Assembly (NCBI GenBank): GCA_036257535.1
Contig: DATAFJ010000070.1
Span: 1,595-65,594 of the forward strand
Length of the DNA stretch: 64,000 bases
Direction: 5' to 3'
Source: Vicinamibacterales bacterium
GTDB taxonomy: Bacteria > Acidobacteriota > Vicinamibacteria > Vicinamibacterales > 2-12-FULL-66-21
The notes beneath the pieces are model-generated. The model saw only the letters and a list, made by a program, of their open reading frames with translations. It did no database searches and was not told where the DNA came from. This document shows, in pieces, positions 39,560 through 49,008 of this stretch. Positions within the stretch are counted from its first letter, which is position 1. Every line of letters starts with the position of its first letter. The position numbers and the translations under genes were made by a program.

Positions 39560-40357
39560 TTACGCCGGCGCGATCGCGAGGACTCTCGCAGGACTGCCGC
39601 TGCCGTTGACGAGTTTGAGCGGCGCGGCGATGACGATCGCGCCGGTCGGCGGCAGCCGATCGAGATTGCACAGGCTGGCGAGGCCGAACTTGCCGGCGCC
39701 GTGCATGATCGCGTGGTTCGAAAAGGGCGGGTCGAATCGCCCGGCCTGGCCCGCGTCCGTGCCGATCGTCTCGACGCCCACGCCGAGCACGTCCCGATCG
39801 AGGGCGAGGAGCTGGGACGCCGCTTTGTCGAAGCCCGGGCTGTGCGGCCCATCCGGTCCGACGTTGAGAAAGCTCGCGGCGTCGCCGCGGCTGCTCCAGC
39901 CGCTCCGCAACAGCACCCACGCGCCGGCCGGAATCCGTCCGTGCTCGCGCTCCCACGCTTCGACCCCTGCGGGCGTGAGCAGAAAATCGGGATTGGCGGC
40001 AACCTCGCTCGTAACGTCGATGACGCACGCCGGTCCCACCAGCCGCCGCGCCGGAATCGTGTCGCAGGCGTTTTCCGGCAGGTCTTTCCCGGTGATCCAG
40101 TGAATCGGCGCGTCGAAGTGCGTGCCGGTGTGCTCGCCCAGCCGAATGGTGTTCCAGTACCAGGCCGGTCCTTTTTCGTCGTAGCGCGAGATGACTTCGA
40201 CCGAGAGCCCGGGCGACGAGGCGAAGATCGGCGGCAGGCCGATGACCGGCGTGTCGGGCCCGAGCGGCTGCGTGAGGTCCACGACGACCAGCCGCCCATC
40301 GGCCAGCTCGGAAACGAGATTGGCAAGAGTGCTCATCGTCATGCGTTTCGCGGTCAT
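39560..40357 (-). CDS. cyclase family protein (kynurenine formamidase-like metal hydrolase)
   Basis: Start trimmed to the ATG at 40357 (ATGA overlap). The HTGTHFDAPIHW motif is typical of the putative cyclase/formamidase family. Confidence 0.75.
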   Translation of the reverse strand: MTAKRMTMSTLANLVSELADGRLVVVDLTQPLGPDTPVIGLPPIFASSPGLSVEVISRYDEKGPAWYWNTIRLGEHTGTHFDAPIHWITGKDLPENACDTIPARRLVGPACVIDVTSEVAANPDFLLTPAGVEAWEREHGRIPAGAWVLLRSGWSSRGDAASFLNVGPDGPHSPGFDKAASQLLALDRDVLGVGVETIGTDAGQAGRFDPPFSNHAIMHGAGKFGLASLCNLDRLPPTGAIVIAAPLKLVNGSGSPARVLAIAPA

Positions 40358-41925
40358 TGTTTCGCGATAGCGGCCCGGCCTCCCCGCAACACGTACTTCT
40401 GGATCTTGCCGGTCGCCGTTTTCGGCAGCTCGTTGATGAAGGTGACCGTGTGCGGCGCCTTGAAGTGGGCGAGCCGGTCTCGCGCGAACTGGCGCAGCTC
40501 GGTCTCGGTCGCGGTTGCGCCCGCCTTCAGCACGACGAACGCATGCGGCGCTTCTCCCCATTTCGCGTCAGGAAGGCCGACGACGGCCGCTTCCTGCACG
40601 CTCGGGTGCCGCAGCAGCGTGCCCTCGACTTCGACCGACGAGATGTTCTCGCCGCCGCTGATGATCACGTCTTTCAGCCGGTCGCGGATCTCGACGTAGC
40701 CGTCGGGATGGACGACGGCGGCGTCGCCCGTGTAAAACCATCCGTCGCGGATGCATCTGGCGGTCGCCTCGGGGTCGTTGAAGTAGCCTTCCATCACGAC
40801 GTTGCCGCGCACGGTAATCTCGCCCAACGATTCGCCGTCGGCCGGGACCTCCCGTCCCTGTTCGTCCACGACCCGGAGCTCGCCCGACGTGACGAGCTCC
40901 ACCCCCTGGCGTGCCTTTATTGATGCGCGATCTGCCGCGGGCAGCGCTGCATGCTCGGGACGCGGCTCGCAGACAGAGATGAACGGCGTGGTTTCGGTCA
41001 GACCGTAGACCTGCGTCACGCTCCAACCGAGCTTCTCTTCGAGCGACTCGATCGTCGCCGCGGCCGGCGGCGCGCCGGCCGTGAGGATGCGGAGGCCGCG
41101 CGGCGCGTTGCGCCGAATCGAGTCGCGCGCGTTCGACAGGCCGATGAGGACCGTGGGCGCCGCGCACAGCATAGTGATGGATTCGCGCTGCATGAGCTCG
41201 AACACGGCCGCGGGCTCGACTTTCCGAAGGCACACGTGCACGGCGCCGACGGCGGTCACGGTCCACACGAACGTCCACCCGTTCGCGTGAAACATCGGCA
41301 GCGTCCACAGATAGCGATCGGCCGGTGTCATTGGCGCATGAACGAGCGTTCCCACGACGTTCATGTACGCATTGCGATGAGTGATCATCACGCCCTTCGG
41401 CCGTGACGTCGTCCCGCTGGTGTAGTTGATCGTCAGCAGGTCCGTCTCGTCGATGTCGGGCCGCTGGAAGTCCGGGCGCGACTCGGCCACCAGCGTTTCG
41501 TAATCCAGCCAGCCGTCCCGTGCGCGTTCAAGAGCCACGAGATGGTGCACGCCTGGGACGCGGGAGCGGATGCTGTCGACCACCTCGAGATAATCGCCGT
41601 CGGCGCACACGACCCGGGCGCCGCTGTGCTCGAGGAGGTAAGCGAAGTCGTCGGCCGTGAGGCGATAGTTGACCGGCACGAGCACGGCGCCGATCTGCGG
41701 CACCGCGTAGAACGATTCGAGTTGTGCCTGAGTGTTGGGCGCGATGTAGGCGACGCGATCGCCCCGACCTACACCCAGCGATTGCAGCGCCGCCGACCAG
41801 CGATCGACGCGATCGAAGAAGCCCGAGTACGTCGTCCGACGGTCGCGATCGATGACGGCTTCGCGATTGCCGTAGAGGCGCCGGGCCCGGCGTGCGAACT
41901 CGAGCGGCGTCAGGGGTGTCTTCAT
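40354..41925 (-). CDS. AMP-dependent acyl-CoA synthetase/ligase
   Basis: 523 aa. AMP-binding motif TINYTSGTTSRPKGV. GWFYTGD and a C-terminal LPKTATGKIQK lysine motif. Confidence 0.85.
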   Translation of the reverse strand: MKTPLTPLEFARRARRLYGNREAVIDRDRRTTYSGFFDRVDRWSAALQSLGVGRGDRVAYIAPNTQAQLESFYAVPQIGAVLVPVNYRLTADDFAYLLEHSGARVVCADGDYLEVVDSIRSRVPGVHHLVALERARDGWLDYETLVAESRPDFQRPDIDETDLLTINYTSGTTSRPKGVMITHRNAYMNVVGTLVHAPMTPADRYLWTLPMFHANGWTFVWTVTAVGAVHVCLRKVEPAAVFELMQRESITMLCAAPTVLIGLSNARDSIRRNAPRGLRILTAGAPPAAATIESLEEKLGWSVTQVYGLTETTPFISVCEPRPEHAALPAADRASIKARQGVELVTSGELRVVDEQGREVPADGESLGEITVRGNVVMEGYFNDPEATARCIRDGWFYTGDAAVVHPDGYVEIRDRLKDVIISGGENISSVEVEGTLLRHPSVQEAAVVGLPDAKWGEAPHAFVVLKAGATATETELRQFARDRLAHFKAPHTVTFINELPKTATGKIQKYVLRGGRAAIAKQ

Positions 41926-42488
41926 TGTTGTGGCCGCAGGTGCCGGGCAAATTGAAATCGGTTCTCGAGGAGGCCCAGGTCGGTGACGAACGCCTTCGGG
42001 CCCACCGCTTCGACCTTGGCGACGATCGTGGCCAGCTCGCGCGCGGAGAGGGCTTCGGAGACCGACTTCTGCAGCTCGTCGACCGACCGGACGGTCACCG
42101 TCCGTGGAACCCCGGCCGCGGCCGCGATCTTCGCGATATCGCTGCCCGTTGACGTCGCCGTTGGAAAACCACCGACCGACAGCAGGCTCTCGTTGTCGAA
42201 GACGATGTGCAGCAGGTTGGCCGGCCGGTATCGCGCGAGCGTCGTCAGGCCGCCGAGGTTCATCAGCACCGAGCCGTCGCCGTCGAGGACAACGACTTGG
42301 ACCTCTGGCCGGGTCAGCGCAATACCCAGCCCGAGAGAGGACGCCAGGCCCATCGCGTGCTGCAGATAAAAGAAGTTGGGGCGATGCCCGATCTCCTGCA
42401 GTTCCGCCGCGACGGCGCCCATTATCGTGACGACGACCGACTGCTCGAGCTGCGGATAGATAGCCTGCAGTGCCTCGCTGCGCTTCAT
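41922..42488 (-). CDS. TPP-dependent decarboxylase, beta subunit (sulfopyruvate/phosphonopyruvate decarboxylase-like)
   Basis: The real gene is the C-terminal 188 aa of the 342-aa track ORF, with ATG verified at 42488. TPP-binding GDGSVLMNLGGLTT..N..IVFDNE. Confidence 0.75.
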   Translation of the reverse strand: MKRSEALQAIYPQLEQSVVVTIMGAVAAELQEIGHRPNFFYLQHAMGLASSLGLGIALTRPEVQVVVLDGDGSVLMNLGGLTTLARYRPANLLHIVFDNESLLSVGGFPTATSTGSDIAKIAAAAGVPRTVTVRSVDELQKSVSEALSARELATIVAKVEAVGPKAFVTDLGLLENRFQFARHLRPQQ

Positions 42489-43000
42489 TGCTCGTCCCAC
42501 ATTAGATCGCGACAGAGGAGGAGCGCGACCGGACGGCTCGCCGATTGGGCGAGCGTCTCCGCCTTCCGGATGCGCACCGCGACGTGCGCCGGATCCTCCA
42601 GCCGCGCGAATGGAATCCGCAACGCGCGCAGCAGCTCCTCTGTCACCCCGCCCCCTTCGGTCTGCCACGGGTCGCGCTCGCCGAACTCGCCGCGGTGGCT
42701 GATGAGCATCAGCAGCGGAATGCGATACAGCTGTGCGCACGAGACGATGCCGTTGATGGAGGCGAGGAAGCCATGGTTCTGCATGAGCATGGCCGATCGC
42801 GCGCCCGCCAGATGCGCGCCGGCCGAGACGCCGACGCCCTCTTCCTCTTTCGCGAGGCGAACGAGAATCATCTCCGGATCCTCGTCTGCCATGCGGATCA
42901 GGTGCACGAGCCAGGTTTCCGGAAGCGCGGACATCAGCGTGACGCCGCACGCCTTCAGCGCGTCGTAGACGACCTTCGAGTTGGTGACGGAGACCGGCAC
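42485..43000 (-). CDS. TPP-dependent decarboxylase, alpha subunit (ComD-like)
   Basis: 171 aa with a GTG start. EEEGVGVSAGAHLAGARSAMLMQNHGFLASINGI..YRIPLLMLISHRGEFGE matches the N-terminal pyrimidine-binding domain of split TPP decarboxylases. Confidence 0.75.
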   Translation of the reverse strand: MPVSVTNSKVVYDALKACGVTLMSALPETWLVHLIRMADEDPEMILVRLAKEEEGVGVSAGAHLAGARSAMLMQNHGFLASINGIVSCAQLYRIPLLMLISHRGEFGERDPWQTEGGGVTEELLRALRIPFARLEDPAHVAVRIRKAETLAQSASRPVALLLCRDLMWDEQ

Positions 43001-43010
43001 GAGGAGCCGC

Positions 43011-43610
43011 CTATTTCTTCATGGAGGCCGCCGCGGGCAGCTTTGGCAGCTCGTCGAGCACGCCGCTCATCGTCTCGAGATGGTCCTTGATGCCGGAGAC
43101 CTGCTCCCGTTGACGATCGGAAAGCACGGGACGAGCCAGCTCGTCGGCGAGCCGCACGAGAAGCGCCAGCGGACGCCGGAGAGAGTGGACCTTCCTAATC
43201 ACCTGCTCGTGCGTCAGGGCCTGCTCCCGTGCGCGCTGGAGAATCCGCTGCCGATCTTCAAAGCCCGCGGCCAGTTGAATCACCAGGAACCGCCGGCCCT
43301 TGAGTGCGATCGCGGTAGCGGTGATCGGTAGTTCCCGTCCGGAGTCGTCGGTGATCATGAAGTCGCCGCTGTCGAGACGGCCCTCATCATGACTGCCCCA
43401 GAACGCCTCGGCCTCGTGGAGAAATGCGGAGAGCCCGGGAAAGGACTCTGCGATCTTCGGTCGACGTCCCCCTCCGGCGGTCCGGTAGATCCGGGTGAAC
43501 CATTCGGGCGGCTGCGCATCGCCGATCTGGACGAATGTTCCGCCCGGCACCTGCTCCATGACGACCATGTCGAGAGCCGCCGCCAGTCGTGCGAGGACCG
43601 TTTCAGACAC
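43011..43610 (-). CDS. sensor-like domain plus histidine-kinase DHp/H-box-like helix, no ATPase domain
   Basis: 199 aa with a GTG start (GAGG 9 nt upstream). C-terminal EQVIRKVHSLRRPLALLVRLADEL..LSDRQREQVSGIKDHLETMSGVLDEL resembles HisKA (H-E-L-R-T-P-L type H-box). Nothing resembling a HATPase_c domain follows. Confidence 0.55.
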   Translation of the reverse strand: MSETVLARLAAALDMVVMEQVPGGTFVQIGDAQPPEWFTRIYRTAGGGRRPKIAESFPGLSAFLHEAEAFWGSHDEGRLDSGDFMITDDSGRELPITATAIALKGRRFLVIQLAAGFEDRQRILQRAREQALTHEQVIRKVHSLRRPLALLVRLADELARPVLSDRQREQVSGIKDHLETMSGVLDELPKLPAAASMKK

Positions 43611-43633
43611 GTTGTAAGGCCTCAGCAGTCGCG

Positions 43634-44131
43634 TCAGGCCGCGAGCATCCCGCGCGCTAGCTTCACGAAGGCTTCCTCGACGCCGGCGCCGGTCTTGGCG
43701 CTCGTTCTCAGGATCGGCCAGCCCTTTTCCGCAATTCGCCAGAGCGCGCGATCATCGACCTGCCACTCGGCCTCGAGGTCTGCCTTGTTAAGAAGGATCA
43801 CAAACGGCACATGGCCGATGACGCCCTCGGCGGTCTGTTGGAGCGACACAGCCGTGTCGAGCGTAAGCGGGCGAGTCCCGTCCACGACCAGCAGGTACCC
43901 GGAGGCGCCGCGCAGATAGGATGTCTGGACCGTTTGAAACTCGTCCTGCCCATACAAGTCCCATAGAACCAGCGTGACCGACTCGCCGTCGACAGGTACG
44001 GTTTTCTTGTCGACCTTTACCCCGACCGTCGTCAGGTACTTATCGGAGAAGATGCTGCTGACGAACCGCGACACGAGACTCGTCTTGCCGACGCCGAATC
44101 CGCCCAGCATGCAGATCTTCTTTTGAATCAT
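43634..44131 (-). CDS. Ras/Rab-like small GTPase
   Basis: The real gene is the C-terminal 165 aa of the 268-aa track ORF, with ATG verified at 44131. Motifs are G1 GGFGVGKT, switch I YLTTVGV, G3 WDLYGQ, G4 NKAD and G5 TSAK. Confidence 0.85.
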   Translation of the reverse strand: MIQKKICMLGGFGVGKTSLVSRFVSSIFSDKYLTTVGVKVDKKTVPVDGESVTLVLWDLYGQDEFQTVQTSYLRGASGYLLVVDGTRPLTLDTAVSLQQTAEGVIGHVPFVILLNKADLEAEWQVDDRALWRIAEKGWPILRTSAKTGAGVEEAFVKLARGMLAA

Positions 44132-45894
44132 CGGTTCGGGAGCGCCTCCGGCGCGCCGGACAGTAGCACGCGAAGGGAGACGCGGCGATTGCGCTGCTTG
44201 TCGGTCTCGGTCGGGCCGGTCGTCAACGGCTCGGCACTGCCGACGCCGGTCGACGCGAGGTCGATCTGCTGCAGGCGCTCGACCTGGAGCGCCGCTCGAA
44301 CACGCTCGGCGCGCCGTGCGCTTAGCGGGACATTCGATTGCGGCGGCCCGTCGGCATCCGCATGCCCCCGGATCTCGAGCACGAGGCGGCGTCCGGACGC
44401 TTTCGCGAGCGCATCGAGAAAGTGAACGTCCTGCCGGCACGCGGCGAGCGCTTGATCGCCGTCCGGAGGAAGCTGCGTCGTACCCTTTATGAAGAGCAGG
44501 CGCGCTGCCTCGAGGCGCTGCGTAACTGCAGCAATCTCCGAATTGATTAAGCTCGCCGCGTCGTAGCGCGTGACGCCGGGGATAGCGCGCGCGAGCGGAA
44601 GGCTCTCCACGATCCAGTCGGGGGACGCCGTGCCCGTCGCAGTGAGAACGCCGTCGGCAAATCGAAGCGTGACGCCGGACGGCGTCCGCAGGAGCTCACG
44701 AGCCCTTGCGAGCACGAACGGCGGCTCGAGCGCCTGATAGAGCTGCCAGGTGCCGGTAACGCTGGCATTTGAGAGCTGGTGAGACGCGAGGAGTGAGGCC
44801 GGATCGCGCGCGAGCGGATCCCGGAGGCCGCTCACGATGTACTTGCCTCCTTGACGGTCGGCAGACACGACGACGATGCCCGGCTCGGCCCGAAGCGTGT
44901 CGAGATAGGCGTCCCACCGCGCGCGCGCCCGGAGGATCGAGAACAGCCAGAGACCCGCCAGCAACAGCAAGCCGGCGGCGATAGCCCACAGCCACGGCGA
45001 CGTGCGCTTCCTCTCGCGGTGATACTGCACCTGCAGACATGTTTCGAGCAGCGGCCGTGCGGCTTCGAACGGGCCCGTGTCGCCGTCGAACGATCGCAGC
45101 GCGTCGCCGTGCTGACTGTGCACGCGCTCGATGACGTCCTGCAGGGCGGCGCGCAGCTCGCGTGGCGGGGTGCCTCGAATCACCGCGGCGAGAATCGCGT
45201 GCGGGCCCTGTTCAATCCAGACCGACAGCTCGCCAATCTGCAGTGTCTCCAGCGCCTCAGCCTCCGATACCCGGAAGGAATCGCGCGCAAAGTCACGGAT
45301 GGCCGTGAGCATGGCGGAGACCAAGTCGGCGTCGGGAACCGCCGCCGAGTCCGCTTTCAAGTGCAGCAGCAGCAGTCCCGACTGTCGATCTATCAGGAAG
45401 ACCTGTTCCACGCGGTAGACGAGCGTATTGAGGAGGACGACTTCCGCGAAGGATTTGCCGGTTCTGAGCGCCGTGATGCGCCACTGGACTGCGCGCCACG
45501 ACAGGCTGTGCTCGAGCGTCCGGTTGAGCGACTCGAGCATGCCGCTCAGGCTGGCCGCGATCGCCTTGCGAATCGCGGGCCCGATGACCGGGAACATCGC
45601 GTCGGCGAGCGGTTGGGGGTTCTTCCGGACGGAAGCGGTGATCGCTTCTTCTATCGTCGGCGCGAGCGCGCGCGTCAGCTGCGGATCGCGAGTGCGCAGC
45701 AGCACCGCCTCCGGCAATACCTGGCTGACCTCCCGGGCCTGGGTGAGCGGATCGTCCAATCGGGCTTGAAGCGTGCGCAGCTGCCGCTGTTCGGGTCCGA
45801 CGATGAGCGAACGCAGCTCGGTGAACGCCGCCGCCGGACCGTTTGGCTCGGGCGGCCGCCGGTCATCCGAGCGGGCGGCTGCCCGGTTAGCCAC
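44128..45894 (-). CDS. membrane protein: Roadblock/LC7-like cytoplasmic region, one TM, periplasmic OmpA/MotB-type C-terminal domain
   Basis: 588 aa with a GTG start. TM helix WLWAIAAGLLLLAGLWLFSIL. C-terminus LEIRGHADADG..NVPLSARRAERVRAAL..NRRVSLRV is OmpA_C-like. The Roadblock-like call for VEQVFLIDRQSGLLLLHLK..ILAAVIRG is inference. Confidence 0.7.
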   Translation of the reverse strand: MANRAAARSDDRRPPEPNGPAAAFTELRSLIVGPEQRQLRTLQARLDDPLTQAREVSQVLPEAVLLRTRDPQLTRALAPTIEEAITASVRKNPQPLADAMFPVIGPAIRKAIAASLSGMLESLNRTLEHSLSWRAVQWRITALRTGKSFAEVVLLNTLVYRVEQVFLIDRQSGLLLLHLKADSAAVPDADLVSAMLTAIRDFARDSFRVSEAEALETLQIGELSVWIEQGPHAILAAVIRGTPPRELRAALQDVIERVHSQHGDALRSFDGDTGPFEAARPLLETCLQVQYHRERKRTSPWLWAIAAGLLLLAGLWLFSILRARARWDAYLDTLRAEPGIVVVSADRQGGKYIVSGLRDPLARDPASLLASHQLSNASVTGTWQLYQALEPPFVLARARELLRTPSGVTLRFADGVLTATGTASPDWIVESLPLARAIPGVTRYDAASLINSEIAAVTQRLEAARLLFIKGTTQLPPDGDQALAACRQDVHFLDALAKASGRRLVLEIRGHADADGPPQSNVPLSARRAERVRAALQVERLQQIDLASTGVGSAEPLTTGPTETDKQRNRRVSLRVLLSGAPEALPNR

Positions 45895-46477
45895 GGCCGG
45901 CGTCTGTCGGCGCCGGGACCCGGAGGTCGTCGGTCAACCGCATGGCCATGTCGTTGAGCAGCGCCGCCAGCGTCGCGCGGTCAGCCTTGTCGGTCCGGAG
46001 TTCCTGCGATTCCCGGACGAGCCGCGCAACGATGTCGTCCGCCTGCTGCCGGAGGTCGTCCGTCAACCGCTGGCCCTGTTCGTGGAGCTGCTGCCGGACA
46101 TCGCGCAGGCCGCGCGCCATCTGGTCGTCGAGCTGACCGCATTTCTGCTCGAACGCTCGCGCGGTCTCCTCGATCTGACGCGACAGATCCTGCACCGTCT
46201 TCGAGCGCTCGTCCTGTTCTCCTTTGAGTCGGTCGCTGAGCGCCTCGATTTCGGTGCGAATGAGCTGTTCGATAGATGCCAGCCGCTTCCTGACGTCCTC
46301 ACGGACATCGGCGGTTTCTTTCGAGAGCCGTTCTTCCAGGCGCGCGAACTTGCGTTCGTAATCACGCATCTGGACGCCGAACAGCAAGTCGCGGACCTTT
46401 TCGAGGCTGGCGCCGCTGTCCACATCCTGCGTCCGGGTTTGTGCCTCAGTGGTGTGAGTATCGATGGAGGTCGTCAT
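45887..46477 (-). CDS. coiled-coil protein
   Basis: Start trimmed to the ATG at 46477 (GGAGGA 8 nt upstream). 196 aa, almost entirely heptad-like charged helix (ERKFARLEERLSKETADVREDVRKRLASIEQLIRTEIEALSDRLK...). Confidence 0.65.
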   Translation of the reverse strand: MTTSIDTHTTEAQTRTQDVDSGASLEKVRDLLFGVQMRDYERKFARLEERLSKETADVREDVRKRLASIEQLIRTEIEALSDRLKGEQDERSKTVQDLSRQIEETARAFEQKCGQLDDQMARGLRDVRQQLHEQGQRLTDDLRQQADDIVARLVRESQELRTDKADRATLAALLNDMAMRLTDDLRVPAPTDAGRG

Positions 46478-46550
46478 GACGCATGTCCTCCGTGCTGCCA
46501 TTTAGATTGGGGGAAGGGAGCGTACCACAAATCGACCCCGCGCCAGATGC

Positions 46551-47456
46551 CTATCCCGTCGGGGGCCGGTAGTCCATCTCGCCTGCCTGAATAGCGATCG
46601 GCAGCCGGTTTTGCGGGGACGGCAGGGGGCAGGTGGTATGAGGGTTGAACGCGCAGGGGGGGTTATACGCACGGTTGAAGTCGATGAGGACCTTCAGGTC
46701 CGCCCCGGGGGCGTCGGCATAGACGAAGCGCGCGGCGCTGTATGTCTCCCTGCCGCTCGTTTGGTCGCGGAAGATGAACCAGTACCGGCCGCGCGACGAC
46801 AGGACCGGCTCCATCTTGACCTCACGGCCATGGAGAGTGAAGGCAACCAGCCCGGGACTCTTGAACTCCTCGACGTCGCCAAGGATGTTCGGCAGCTCGA
46901 CGCGCTTCGGGGCGTTGTACGGTATCAGGCGCCCCTCGACGCGATACGCCGAATCAACGGGAAACCACTTGCAGCCGGTGAACTCGCGGCGGATCCGACT
47001 GTTGGTGTCGCGCAGGCGGATCGCCTGCCGCCGCCCGCTCGCGTGCACGAACAATGTGAGGCTGCCGATCACTACCCGATCCGGGCCACCCTCGACAGTA
47101 TCCGGCTTCAACGTCATCTCCCGCATCCGCTTGCCGTTGAGGGTCGCGGTCGAACCTTCCGCCAGCGTGACCGTCGTGACGCCGCCACGATGCTCGAACG
47201 TGCCCGCTTCGGCCGGACCGGAAGGAAGGACGATATCGTTCTTCGGATCGCTGCCGAACCGGCTCACGCCTTCCTGCAGGAAGAACAGCCCCGCCACCGT
47301 CAGGTAGCCATCGTCTGTCTTGAGCGCCGCCTCGCGCTCCTGCCGCCATTTCTCGATCGAGGCTGCGTAGTCGGGATCGGGTGGAGACTGCGCGGCGCAC
47401 GTCGCGACGAGCCCGATTGCAACGATCGACGCTCTAGAGATCGACATGGATGTCAC
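46551..47456 (-). CDS. DUF1684 domain-containing protein
   Basis: 301 aa. Track start 47456 is a GTG, and an alternative ATG at 47447 gives MSISRASIVAIGLVATCAAQ. WRQEREAALKTDDGYLTVAGLFFL and C-terminal NPPCAFNPHTTCPLPSPQNRL are typical of DUF1684. Confidence 0.75.
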   Translation of the reverse strand: MTSMSISRASIVAIGLVATCAAQSPPDPDYAASIEKWRQEREAALKTDDGYLTVAGLFFLQEGVSRFGSDPKNDIVLPSGPAEAGTFEHRGGVTTVTLAEGSTATLNGKRMREMTLKPDTVEGGPDRVVIGSLTLFVHASGRRQAIRLRDTNSRIRREFTGCKWFPVDSAYRVEGRLIPYNAPKRVELPNILGDVEEFKSPGLVAFTLHGREVKMEPVLSSRGRYWFIFRDQTSGRETYSAARFVYADAPGADLKVLIDFNRAYNPPCAFNPHTTCPLPSPQNRLPIAIQAGEMDYRPPTG

Positions 47457-49008
47457 GAAGCTTGAACCGTTGAATCTTTCCCGTCGCCGTCTTCGGCAGG
47501 TCGGGCACGAAGGCGACCCAACGCGGGCACTTGTACACCGCGATACGCATCTTGACGAACCGCTTCAACTCGTCGGCCAGATCCGGCGATCCGGCGCGTC
47601 CAGGCTTCAGCACGACGAACGCCAGCGGCTTGACGAGGCCGGCCGCATCTTCCCGTCCGACGACCCCGCATTCGAGCACGGCCTCGTGGGCGACGACGGC
47701 CGCTTCCACCTCGGCCGGCGAGACCCACTGTCCGCCGCTCTTCAGCATGTCATCCGACCGGCCGTGATACCAGAAGTATCCGTCCGCGTCCCGGCTGTAC
47801 TTGTCGCCCGTCCTGATCCAGCCGTCAGCGATCGTTGCCGCGGTTTTCTCCGGCTGGTTCCAGTAGCCCGCGCAGATCGACTCGCCTTTGATGAGGAGAT
47901 CGCCGATCTCTCCCGGTGCGATCTCGCCGCCATCCGAATTGACGATCTTCGCCTCGTATCCAGGGACGATCTCGCCGCTCGAGCCGGACCGTACGCGGCC
48001 GGGCCGATTGGCGATGAACGTGTGGAGAACCTCCGTCGAGCCGATCCCATCCAGGATCTCGACGCCGAATCGGGCTTTCCAGCGCTCGTAGAGTGCGGCC
48101 GGCAACGGCTCGCCGGCGGAGCTGCACAGGCGAAGACTGCTCAGGTCGTACTGCCGCTGGCTTCGTTCGGCGAGCGCCAGCATCGCTGCGTAAGCGGTCG
48201 GAACGCCGTAGAAGATCGTGGGGCGGTGACGTTCGATGATCTCGAAACATCGCTCCGGTTCGGGTTTGGCGTTGTAAAGGATCGTCGACGCGCCGACGCT
48301 GAACGGGAAGTACAGCGCATTGCCGAGGCCATACGCGAAGAAGAGCTTCGCGACCGAGAACGTCCGATCGTCCTCGGTGATGCCGAGAATGCCGCGGCCG
48401 AACGACTCGGCGCAGCAGGCCATGTGACTCTGCAGGTGGATCGCGCCTTTCGGAAAACCGGTTGTGCCGGACGAATACAGCCAGAAGGCGTGGTCGTCCC
48501 GGCTCATCTCCTCCGCGTCGAGATCCGGCGATGCGGCCTCGACGACATCGTCGAAGCTCAGATGCGGTCGCGCGGCGGTGCCGGCAACGATCACGTGTCG
48601 CAGGTTCGCTGGTCGCGAACTGAGCGACTCGACCGAACGCGCGAGCGATTCCTGGACGATGAGCACGCGCGCGCCGCTGTCCTGCAGCAGATACTCGTAG
48701 TCGTGCTGCTTGAGCAGCGTGTTGACCGGTACGGCTACGGCTCCGATCTTGATCGTGCCGAAGAAGGCGGCAACGAAAGCCGCGCCATCGGGCAGGATCA
48801 GCATCACGCGCTCGCCGCGCCGGACGCCGAGGTACCGCAGCGCATGGCCGGTGCGGTTGACGAGTTCGAGGACCTGCGCGTAGGTTAGCGTCGCGCCGGT
48901 GGCCGCATCGAGGACGGCGAGGGCCCCGGCCCGTCCGGCCCGGACGTTGTCGTCGACGAACACCGCCGCGGCGTTCATGCGATCGGCCGAGCGATCGTGC
49001 TGCGACAT
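47434..49008 (-). CDS. benzoate-CoA ligase family AMP-dependent ligase
   Basis: 524 aa. FWLYSSGTTGFPKGAIH, GWIRTGDKY and LPKTATGKIQRFKLR. Overall layout matches aromatic acid-CoA ligases. Substrate not assignable. Confidence 0.8.
   Translation of the reverse strand: MSQHDRSADRMNAAAVFVDDNVRAGRAGALAVLDAATGATLTYAQVLELVNRTGHALRYLGVRRGERVMLILPDGAAFVAAFFGTIKIGAVAVPVNTLLKQHDYEYLLQDSGARVLIVQESLARSVESLSSRPANLRHVIVAGTAARPHLSFDDVVEAASPDLDAEEMSRDDHAFWLYSSGTTGFPKGAIHLQSHMACCAESFGRGILGITEDDRTFSVAKLFFAYGLGNALYFPFSVGASTILYNAKPEPERCFEIIERHRPTIFYGVPTAYAAMLALAERSQRQYDLSSLRLCSSAGEPLPAALYERWKARFGVEILDGIGSTEVLHTFIANRPGRVRSGSSGEIVPGYEAKIVNSDGGEIAPGEIGDLLIKGESICAGYWNQPEKTAATIADGWIRTGDKYSRDADGYFWYHGRSDDMLKSGGQWVSPAEVEAAVVAHEAVLECGVVGREDAAGLVKPLAFVVLKPGRAGSPDLADELKRFVKMRIAVYKCPRWVAFVPDLPKTATGKIQRFKLRDIHVDL

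Follow-up and report, generated by a model that had tools for sequence, protein, structure and literature searches.

A predicted acidobacterial version of the Group 1 Rup small-GTPase module with a peptidoglycan-anchored membrane partner

Organization of the four-gene locus

The stretch of Vicinamibacterales DNA analysed here, 64,000 nucleotides (nt) in length and referred to as the window, carries at positions 43011–46477 four co-directional minus-strand genes, A, B, C and D (Table 1). Judged by their sequences, these four genes represent the Group 1 Rup signalling module in Acidobacteriota (Vicinamibacterales). This gene neighbourhood was described in the survey by Wuichet and Søgaard-Andersen (Genome Biol Evol 2015; PMC4316618), in which Rup was defined as a family of Ras-superfamily GTPases in prokaryotes. 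The open reading frame (ORF) listing of the window confirms the gene layout given by an earlier, sequence-only reading of this DNA: A and B overlap by 8 nt, B and C overlap by 4 nt, and a 23-nt gap separates C from D. An alternative ATG at 46501 would extend the product of gene A to 204 amino acids (aa), and the form in public databases has 196 aa. The exact A–D proteins are all present in public databases, with a Vicinamibacterales metagenome-assembled genome (MAG) as their source, under the names 'hypothetical protein' for A (HEX2443421.1) and D, 'OmpA family protein' for B and 'Rab family GTPase' for C.

Table 1. Genes and protein features of the module, with positions in the window
Feature	Position	Strand	Basis or remark
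Gene A, coiled-coil cytoplasmic protein, 196 aa; DUFY of the Group 1 Rup neighbourhood	45887..46477	minus	ORF
A, N-terminal conserved motif LEKVRDLLFGVQMRDYERKFARLEERL, common to B	46325..46405	minus	75 homologues
Gene B, bitopic inner-membrane protein, 588 aa; DUFX:OmpA	44128..45894	minus	ORF
B residues 24–49, N-terminal motif FTELRSLIVGPEQRQLRTLQARLDDP, common to A	45748..45825	minus	Consensus over 79 homologues
B residues 50–148, highly conserved helical region	45451..45747	minus	Low-confidence model
B residues 149–290, predicted longin-like (Roadblock-related class) α/β domain	45025..45450	minus	AlphaFold2 and Foldseek
B residues 301–321, transmembrane helix WLWAIAAGLLLLAGLWLFSIL	44932..44994	minus	Within predicted helix 300–336
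B residues 340–463, predicted periplasmic BON-like α/β units	44506..44877	minus	Model, Foldseek
B residues 468–578, OmpA/MotB-type peptidoglycan-binding domain	44161..44493	minus	Pfam, Foldseek
Gene C, Rup-type Ras/Rab-like small GTPase, 165 aa	43634..44131	minus	ORF
Gene D, PAS-like domain and DHp-like hairpin, no catalytic domain, 199 aa	43011..43610	minus	ORF
D residues 1–113, predicted PAS-like 'Rup-associated' input domain	43272..43610	minus	AlphaFold2, Foldseek
D residues 121–132 (QRILQRAREQAL), helix with near-invariant Gln125 and Arg128	43215..43250	minus	Alignments
D residues 117–187, DHp-like helical hairpin (degenerate HisKA)	43050..43262	minus	H142 at 43185–43187
D residues 188–192, C-terminal LPKLP (LPxxP)	43035..43049	minus	L188, P189 and P192 invariant in 22 sequences

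Match to the Group 1 Rup neighbourhood

As described from comparative genomics, the Group 1 Rup neighbourhood has the order DUFY > DUFX:OmpA > Rup > signal-output protein (PMC4316618). DUFY is a cytoplasmic coiled-coil protein, in DUFX:OmpA a conserved unknown domain is joined to a membrane helix and, at the C-terminus, to an OmpA domain, and the output protein contains either GGDEF/EAL domains or a histidine kinase, together with an N-terminal region that bears an invariant glutamine (PMC4316618). In our comparison, the window has all four of these components, arranged as in the published neighbourhood. A Ras-like GTPase with G1–G5 motifs, a coiled-coil protein and an unknown-domain/transmembrane/OmpA protein are common to both; C is a single-domain Rup GTPase, the coiled-coil (DUFY) > DUFX-transmembrane-OmpA > Rup order agrees with Table S2 of the survey, and the N-terminal region of the fourth protein has a near-invariant Gln that is probably the one of the published output proteins. 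In addition, Robl_LC7 is undetected by Pfam in all four window proteins. The sequence-only reading had recognised no characterised system with this combination of genes; that claim falls, as the same neighbourhood had been published as Group 1 Rup, in a computational description.

The window copy also departs from the published system in three respects. It comes from Acidobacteria, a group absent from the 'DUFY>DUFX:OmpA>Rup>' entries of Table S2, which comprise Anabaena, Nostoc, Nitrospira, Mesorhizobium, Sorangium, Alteromonas and others (PMC4316618); the cyanobacterial entries of that table fall into the same families as the present loci, and the range of the survey includes Proteobacteria, Bacteroidetes, Chloroflexi and Nitrospirae. 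Furthermore, C keeps a Gln at the position of Ras Gln61, where the family typically has Glu, and D lacks an enzymatic output, a PAS-like domain and a degenerate DHp hairpin being what remains. What is already known is thus the type of system, as a computational prediction, and the window copy is a variant of it with a new phylum, a retained G3 Gln and a pseudo-kinase output. In the 2015 survey, neither DUFX nor the N-terminal region of the output proteins was assigned a fold. The new leads are the model-based fold assignments described below, namely a longin-like DUFX, a BON-like periplasmic linker and a PAS-like N-terminus of the output protein.

Conservation and synteny of the module

A profile of B homologues matched 530 relatives in contigs representing one genome per species, and the best 80 loci of the 530 were kept. 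These loci belong to Vicinamibacteria, Blastocatellia, Pyrinomonadaceae and Nostocales, along with a few contigs bearing implausible MAG labels. By tblastn, A lies directly upstream and C directly downstream of B in essentially all 80 loci, the exceptions being a few short contigs in which a neighbour runs off the end, and locus L046. A D-type gene or a gene of a second type, D2, follows C in every locus with room for it. The A-B-C synteny is far beyond chance. The earlier proposal that the four genes work as one module, centred on a Ras/Rab-like GTPase whose membrane partner is anchored to peptidoglycan, is supported.

Consistent with a wide distribution, the cytoplasmic residues 1–300 of B match 4958 clusters (50% identity) at E ≤ 1e-3 and 1740 at E ≤ 1e-30, and cyanobacterial homologues from Nostoc, Calothrix and others share 41–46% identity with B and 55–60% identity with C of the window. 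The genes that flank the module in the window do not lie beside it in other loci among the 80, and all-against-all ORF clustering of the 80 loci, with ORF calling that is crude at this high GC, gave no further conserved partner beyond the module. No A-B gene fusion was found by BLAST among 150 B representatives. A–D are a real, self-contained and widespread module.

Four loci with an Acidobacteria-like copy of the module (L011, L032, L041 and L076) are labelled as Phycisphaeraceae, Bifidobacterium, Heliomicrobium and Klebsiella pneumoniae MAGs, and these labels are probably binning errors. In Nostoc sp. NIES-4103 (L074, 2805–5094), a protein with two PLD domains (PLDc/PLDc_2), which we take to resemble cardiolipin synthase, and a 278-aa ORF lie just upstream of A.

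The GTPase C

By its sequence, C is a soluble Ras/Rab-like GTPase with intact G1–G5 motifs. It matches Pfam Ras with an E-value of 1.8e-32 and also Roc, and its best solved relatives are Rab7, Sec4 and Rab1 at 1e-25. The motifs read GGFGVGKTS, T35, DLYGQ, NKAD and SAK; G1 (GxxxxGKTS), T35, DxxG, NK(xD) and SAK are invariant across 74 C homologues, in agreement with the complete Ras/Rab motif set assigned from the sequence alone.

The position of Ras Gly12, in the P-loop (44078–44104, C residues 10–18), is occupied by Phe in the window C and in 60 of the 74 homologues. A bulky Phe at this position would clash with a classical arginine finger, which hints at a mechanism for a GTPase-activating protein (GAP) other than that of Ras. 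At the position of Ras Gln61 (C residue 62), the homologues have Glu (49 of 74), Gln (13) or Ala (8), and the window C has Gln. Gln is found here only in loci with a short, kinase-less D (14 of 28, versus 0 of 25 loci with long outputs), an association that may simply mark one clade. In the comparison of the window G3 motif (43946–43960) across all 80 loci (L001–L080), the pattern may reflect either co-variation or shared ancestry.

The membrane protein B

The sequence-only reading had placed one transmembrane helix and a C-terminal OmpA/MotB-type domain in B, and both are upheld. Pfam OmpA matches residues 468–570 with an E-value of 1e-11 and 45.5 bits against a cut-off of 27.2. Residues G510, D513, D515, G516, N521, L524, S525, R528 and N569–R571 are invariant, D513 and R528 being the conserved Asp and Arg of OmpA-like peptidoglycan-binding domains. 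In the AlphaFold2 model of B (31 sequences, mean predicted local distance difference test (pLDDT) 70), residues 340–463 form two small α/β units, and the pLDDT is about 90 over these units and the OmpA domain. The periplasmic part gives a 274-column Foldseek match to Rv0899, a protein with BON and OmpA-like domains. In addition, B homologues of about 900 aa (P0288, P0291, P0299 and P0308) have recognisable Pfam BON domains in the stretch that separates the membrane helix from OmpA, which supports the BON-like reading of residues 340–463. The N-terminus of B is predicted to be cytoplasmic, because no signal peptide is present and the OmpA domain must face the wall. According to the sequence matches and the model, the periplasmic BON-like and OmpA-like domains should tie B to peptidoglycan.

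The cytoplasmic part begins with a region that is modelled as low-confidence helices (residues 20–131), yet is the most conserved sequence of the protein. E26, L27, R28, G33, P34, E35, Q36, R37, R45 and D48 are invariant in the alignment of B homologues. Residues 50–148 contain many invariant columns (PLADA.FP..GPA.R.A), with predicted helices of pLDDT below 50, and this region has no Pfam match, also when searched as an isolated segment.

The adjoining residues 149–290 probably form a longin-class α/β domain, as judged from the model. The predicted elements are α149–157, β161–169, β175–180, α189–208, β217–220, β223–229, β233–240, α245–267 and α274–288, and the ββαβββαα topology of longin domains fits this segment at moderate pLDDT and without a sequence-level signal. 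Longin and Roadblock domains serve as platforms for small GTPases in eukaryotes. Foldseek matches of B against the PDB are dominated by OmpA, Pal, TagL and MotB domains (50 matches listed), and the list also has AP-1 σ3 adaptin (9ddt_B, E 4.4e-5, target TM-score 0.71), a longin-like fold. Among viral predicted structures (BFVD), the best matches after four OmpA proteins are giant-virus synaptobrevins (V-SNAREs, probability 0.92–0.98), which are longin-SNAREs. Both structure libraries thus point to a longin-like fold for this domain.

Gene A and the motif common to A and B

Only weak matches of coiled-coil type (Apolipoprotein, ZorA tail) were obtained for A, in line with its earlier description as a coiled-coil protein. 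The observation that A and B open with the same motif also holds, since the motif is conserved in 75 A and 79 B homologues. The family consensus is LDKVRDILFGxQMRDxEKRFxRLEERL for A and ELRxLLxGPExxxLxxLxxRLxDP for B, and the spacing is identical in the two: R, 17 residues, R-L-[ED]. One reading of the motif is a docking site common to A and B; another is a helical interface between A and B. Either fits the low-confidence helices of B.

The fourth protein D and its output architectures

In the AlphaFold2 model of D (pLDDT 79), a PAS-like α/β domain (residues 1–113) is followed by helices 117–158 and 165–187. The best Foldseek matches are LOV-histidine-kinase chimeras, short LOV proteins and PAS domains, and no Pfam model matches residues 1–113. 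The match of D to HisKA is sub-threshold (E 0.016, 15.7 bits against a cut-off of 26.9), and the Pfam scan of D gave no HATPase_c, GGDEF or EAL domain. An indexed search returned 21 homologues, all of about 200 aa and unnamed, with 38–94% identity. Q125 and R128 are invariant in the alignment of short D proteins and near-invariant across all output architectures; Gln125 is probably the 'invariant glutamine' of the published survey (PMC4316618).

The gene that follows C differs between lineages of the 80 loci. In Vicinamibacteria-like genomes its product has 183–214 aa. The cyanobacterial product has about 370 aa and includes HATPase_c, and in Blastocatellia the gene encodes hybrid kinases of 786–1061 aa (PAS, HisKA, HATPase_c, REC and Hpt). 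All output architectures have in common the N-terminal domain and the LQ(K/R)ARE helix. The N-terminal domain and Q125 of D are homologous to those of kinase and σ54-activator proteins elsewhere, and the enzymatic domain is absent from D. Two further output types were seen, namely a D-type domain with GAF, HisKA_3 and HATPase_c (L054, 8261–9988), and a D-type domain with PAS, a σ54 activator (Sigma54_activat) and HTH_8, encoded upstream on the opposite strand (L065, 2894–5014, minus strand); these exceed the two types named in the 2015 survey.

D is collinear through the H-box region with the cyanobacterial kinases of about 370 aa at the same locus position, and local alignment puts H142 opposite the phospho-His of these kinases (IHCIVHDLAGQL). 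Compared with the kinases, the short D forms lack about 14 residues before the His and everything past the hairpin. The orthology of D to full-length kinases argues for descent from a kinase DHp, and the earlier assignment of the C-terminal half to this type stands. The accompanying description of D as an orphan DHp protein needs correction, because the phospho-His is not conserved: most short homologues have D, Q, S or G in place of H142, and others have H. On these alignments, a conserved but degenerate remnant of a kinase, or pseudo-kinase, describes D better than an orphan phospho-acceptor does. That D might be a truncated gene or an artefact of assembly was considered and rejected, because 21 homologues of the same length have the conserved LPxxP, short forms occur in about 30 loci, and the next gene is only 10 nt away. 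The LPxxP of D is reminiscent of LPxR, a motif that has been reported at the tail of conservon kinases.

The D2 family (about 130 aa) is encoded directly after the GTPase gene in 38 loci (for example, L074 8243–8644 and L034 8453–9331). It is found in cyanobacteria, where it occurs in addition to the kinase, and in Pyrinomonadaceae and Blastocatellia, alone or fused to PAS, and has no Pfam match. The loci without a D-type tblastn match all carry D2, and cyanobacteria carry both types. A comparison of D with D2 by hhalign gave a probability of only 10% with a collinear alignment, so that a relationship between the two is only suggestive. In L042 (8290–9798), a single reading frame contains overlapping regions of D2 and D type, suggestive of a D2-D-kinase fusion protein.

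Flanking genes

The six flanking genes scanned (about 39.5–49 kb) contain only TPP, AMP-binding, cyclase and DUF1684 domains. No kinase or receiver domain was found in these six genes, to which the scan was limited. The earlier statement that no ATPase domain or response regulator occurs nearby is accordingly borne out for D, which is without HATPase_c, and for these genes; the rest of the 64-kb window lies outside the scan. Two minus-strand genes (41922–43000) encode a split TPP enzyme with N- and C-terminal TPP-binding halves. The first of them begins 10 nt past the stop codon of D on the same strand, and the two genes may be transcribed together with the module. At 39560–41925 and 46551–49008 lie the genes for a Cyclase-family protein, for two AMP-binding proteins of the acyl-CoA ligase type and for a DUF1684 protein. 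The flanks of the module look like an ordinary metabolic neighbourhood, and a promoter and terminator scan gave nothing informative.

Proposed mechanism and rival explanations

On balance we lean towards the reading that the four genes form a Group 1 Rup module working as a wall-tethered GTPase switch, which is read by a PAS-like domain and has a non-enzymatic output in this lineage. In such a switch, the longin-like domain of B, probably together with A, would hold C at the membrane and set its nucleotide state, serving as a platform for nucleotide exchange or for GAP activity. Whether C carries GTP or GDP would in that case reflect the condition of the wall-bound periplasmic part of B, and the PAS-like domain of D would read C-GTP. 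The Gln125/Arg128 helix of D may also complete the GTPase active site, following the Gln-in-trans idea proposed in the 2015 survey (PMC4316618). In other lineages, the PAS-like domain would drive a fused kinase or σ54 activator, as seen here, or a cyclic di-GMP enzyme (PMC4316618). In this lineage, D may act only as a timer or GAP, or may relay by binding a kinase or regulator encoded elsewhere. An envelope-sensing or -remodelling role, as the sequence-only reading had it, remains inferred, and that interpretation as a whole is partly supported. The further proposal that the cytoplasmic DUFX domain is a true longin-class platform, which acts on a Rab-like Rup GTPase as its exchange factor or GAP, is tentative, and we hold it to be somewhat doubtful.

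Several points weigh against the wall-tethered switch as proposed. The residues 149–290 of B have pLDDT values of only 45–85, a moderate confidence. The longin-like reading of these residues has only one PDB match behind it, AP-1 σ3 adaptin, the sole non-OmpA match among the 50 listed, and the synaptobrevin matches in BFVD are weak (E 8e-3 to 8e-2). Comparison of B 140–292 with MglB by hhalign gave probabilities of 0.7% (19 B sequences) and 2.3% (147 B sequences), with profiles of low diversity. Group 1 Rup members are described as lacking the G3 glutamine (PMC4316618), and the window C has DLYGQ, which weakens the Gln-in-trans idea for this lineage. The proposal leaves the direction of the signal either way, from envelope to GTPase or from GTPase to envelope. 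In addition, our search of open-access papers and preprints found no laboratory work on the Group 1 Rup module, only the 2015 survey and passing citations.

A different explanation is that the locus encodes an MglA/MglB-type pair, in which the cytoplasmic domain of B acts on C as a genuine Roadblock/LC7 GAP, and D works with a kinase encoded elsewhere as its orphan DHp phospho-acceptor. The element order α-ββ-α-βββ of B is compatible with a Roadblock fold, the β1-β2 stretch QVFLIDRQSGLL of B resembles VVFLVDKNGQLI of MglB, and the HSLRRPL of D in the window resembles an H-box. However, Robl_LC7 (PF03259) has no Pfam match in whole B or in isolated segments, the hhalign probabilities against MglB are those given above, and the listed structural matches are of longin rather than Roadblock type; a PDB sequence-profile search of the cytoplasmic part of B gave one irrelevant match. 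Furthermore, C is Ras/Rab-like and not MglA-like, and Rup, of which no member had been characterised as of 2015, was not predicted to pair with MglB (PMC4316618). The variable residue at the position of H142 in most D homologues also argues against the phospho-acceptor part. We regard this explanation as unlikely, and membership of B in the MglB/Roadblock family was rejected on the negative Pfam, PDB-profile and hhalign results. Of the Roadblock likeness proposed from the sequence alone, the fold-class resemblance is kept: B is predicted to have an α/β domain that belongs to a class of small-GTPase regulators, with longin as its predicted type.

Less probable still is that D is a working two-component element, acting through His142 phosphotransfer, as a phosphatase or by sequestering a response-regulator partner, with the GTPase merely modulating it. 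The hairpin of D is orthologous to the DHp of real kinases, its LRRPL box is well conserved, and the His is kept at the phospho-acceptor position in the window D and its closest relatives; across the kinase-less family, however, it is not conserved. The H-S-L-R-R of D lacks the E/D-x-x-T/N phosphatase motif generally known from HisKA kinases, and neither the module nor the six scanned flanking genes contain a receiver or kinase domain. We further weighed an envelope machine or a Zorya/stator-type anti-phage system, made of a coiled-coil tail and a MotB-like anchor and not devoted to signalling, and find it very improbable. Weak matches of A to ZorA tails (best 2.6e-6) and of the OmpA domain of B to ZorB (2.4e-7) were obtained with PADLOC and NCBIfam, but they span only the coiled coil and the generic OmpA domain. 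No MotA/ExbB-type membrane domain is present, no acidic residue is seen in the transmembrane helix of B, C and D have no PADLOC match, and the fourth gene encodes a signalling protein in every lineage. A known defence system was rejected, as PADLOC gave only generic coiled-coil and OmpA partial matches.

If the wall-tethered Rup switch with a longin-type platform is correct, bacteria would pair their closest relatives of the eukaryotic Ras superfamily with wall-tethered longin-type regulators, and in this lineage a pseudo-kinase adaptor would be what is left of the kinase output. No other prokaryotic group is as close to eukaryotic Rab, Ras and Rho as the Rup GTPases, and a longin-like partner would connect them with the longin/Roadblock principle by which eukaryotic GTPases are regulated. 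The module is also large and widely distributed, with Acidobacteriota and Cyanobacteria represented here and four more phyla in the 2015 survey. The PAS-like reader, whose invariant Gln and Arg can be mutated, is a specific candidate for the GAP or effector that is still missing. In addition, the kinase-less variant is a natural experiment, showing that selection keeps the A-B-C core and the PAS-like domain.

Comparison with known systems

Apart from Group 1 Rup, the module shares individual traits with several known systems. Zorya differs from it in the MotA-like membrane domain of ZorA, which this locus lacks, and the locus gives only partial coiled-coil and OmpA matches to such systems, none of them for C or D. 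TssL/TagL, MotB and Rv0899 (ArfA) have, like B, a cytoplasmic N-terminus, one transmembrane helix and a periplasmic OmpA-like anchor, and Rv0899 also has the BON and OmpA arrangement predicted for B. Their cytoplasmic domains are unrelated, and the module has no type VI secretion, stator or porin context.

The actinobacterial conservon (CvnA–D, or Mfp) consists of a histidine kinase, a Roadblock protein, a DUF742 protein and a small GTPase. Like A–D, it is a four-gene, membrane-associated small-GTPase module with a link of histidine-kinase type and without a response regulator, and in both the switch probably centres on the GTPase. By comparison, the conservon GTPase belongs to the MglA family and not to Rup, the conservon has no peptidoglycan-binding partner, and it contains Robl_LC7 (CvnB) and DUF742 (CvnC), neither of which was detected by Pfam in A–D. 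The MglA/MglB polarity switch of Myxococcus and Thermus likewise combines a small Ras-like GTPase with an α/β regulator of the longin/Roadblock class. B has no sequence or profile similarity to MglB, however, and the window partner is predicted to be membrane-anchored and wall-bound. C is Rab/Ras-like with DxxGQ, its best matches being Ras, Rab and Roc rather than the MglA family.

Eukaryotic Rab and Arf GTPases work with longin regulators, among them σ/μ-adaptins, Mon1-Ccz1, TRAPP, DENN and the longin-SNAREs, and the nearest solved relatives of C are Rab7, Sec4 and Rab1. The best structural matches of the α/β domain of B are σ-adaptin and longin-SNAREs, and B resembles the longin-SNAREs in its predicted arrangement of an α/β domain followed by helices and a membrane anchor; the likeness is at the level of the fold, with 7–14% identity, and homology is not established. 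Distinct from these eukaryotic systems, the module in the window would place a longin-like partner of a Rab-like GTPase in a bacterial setting, with an anchor to the periplasmic peptidoglycan.

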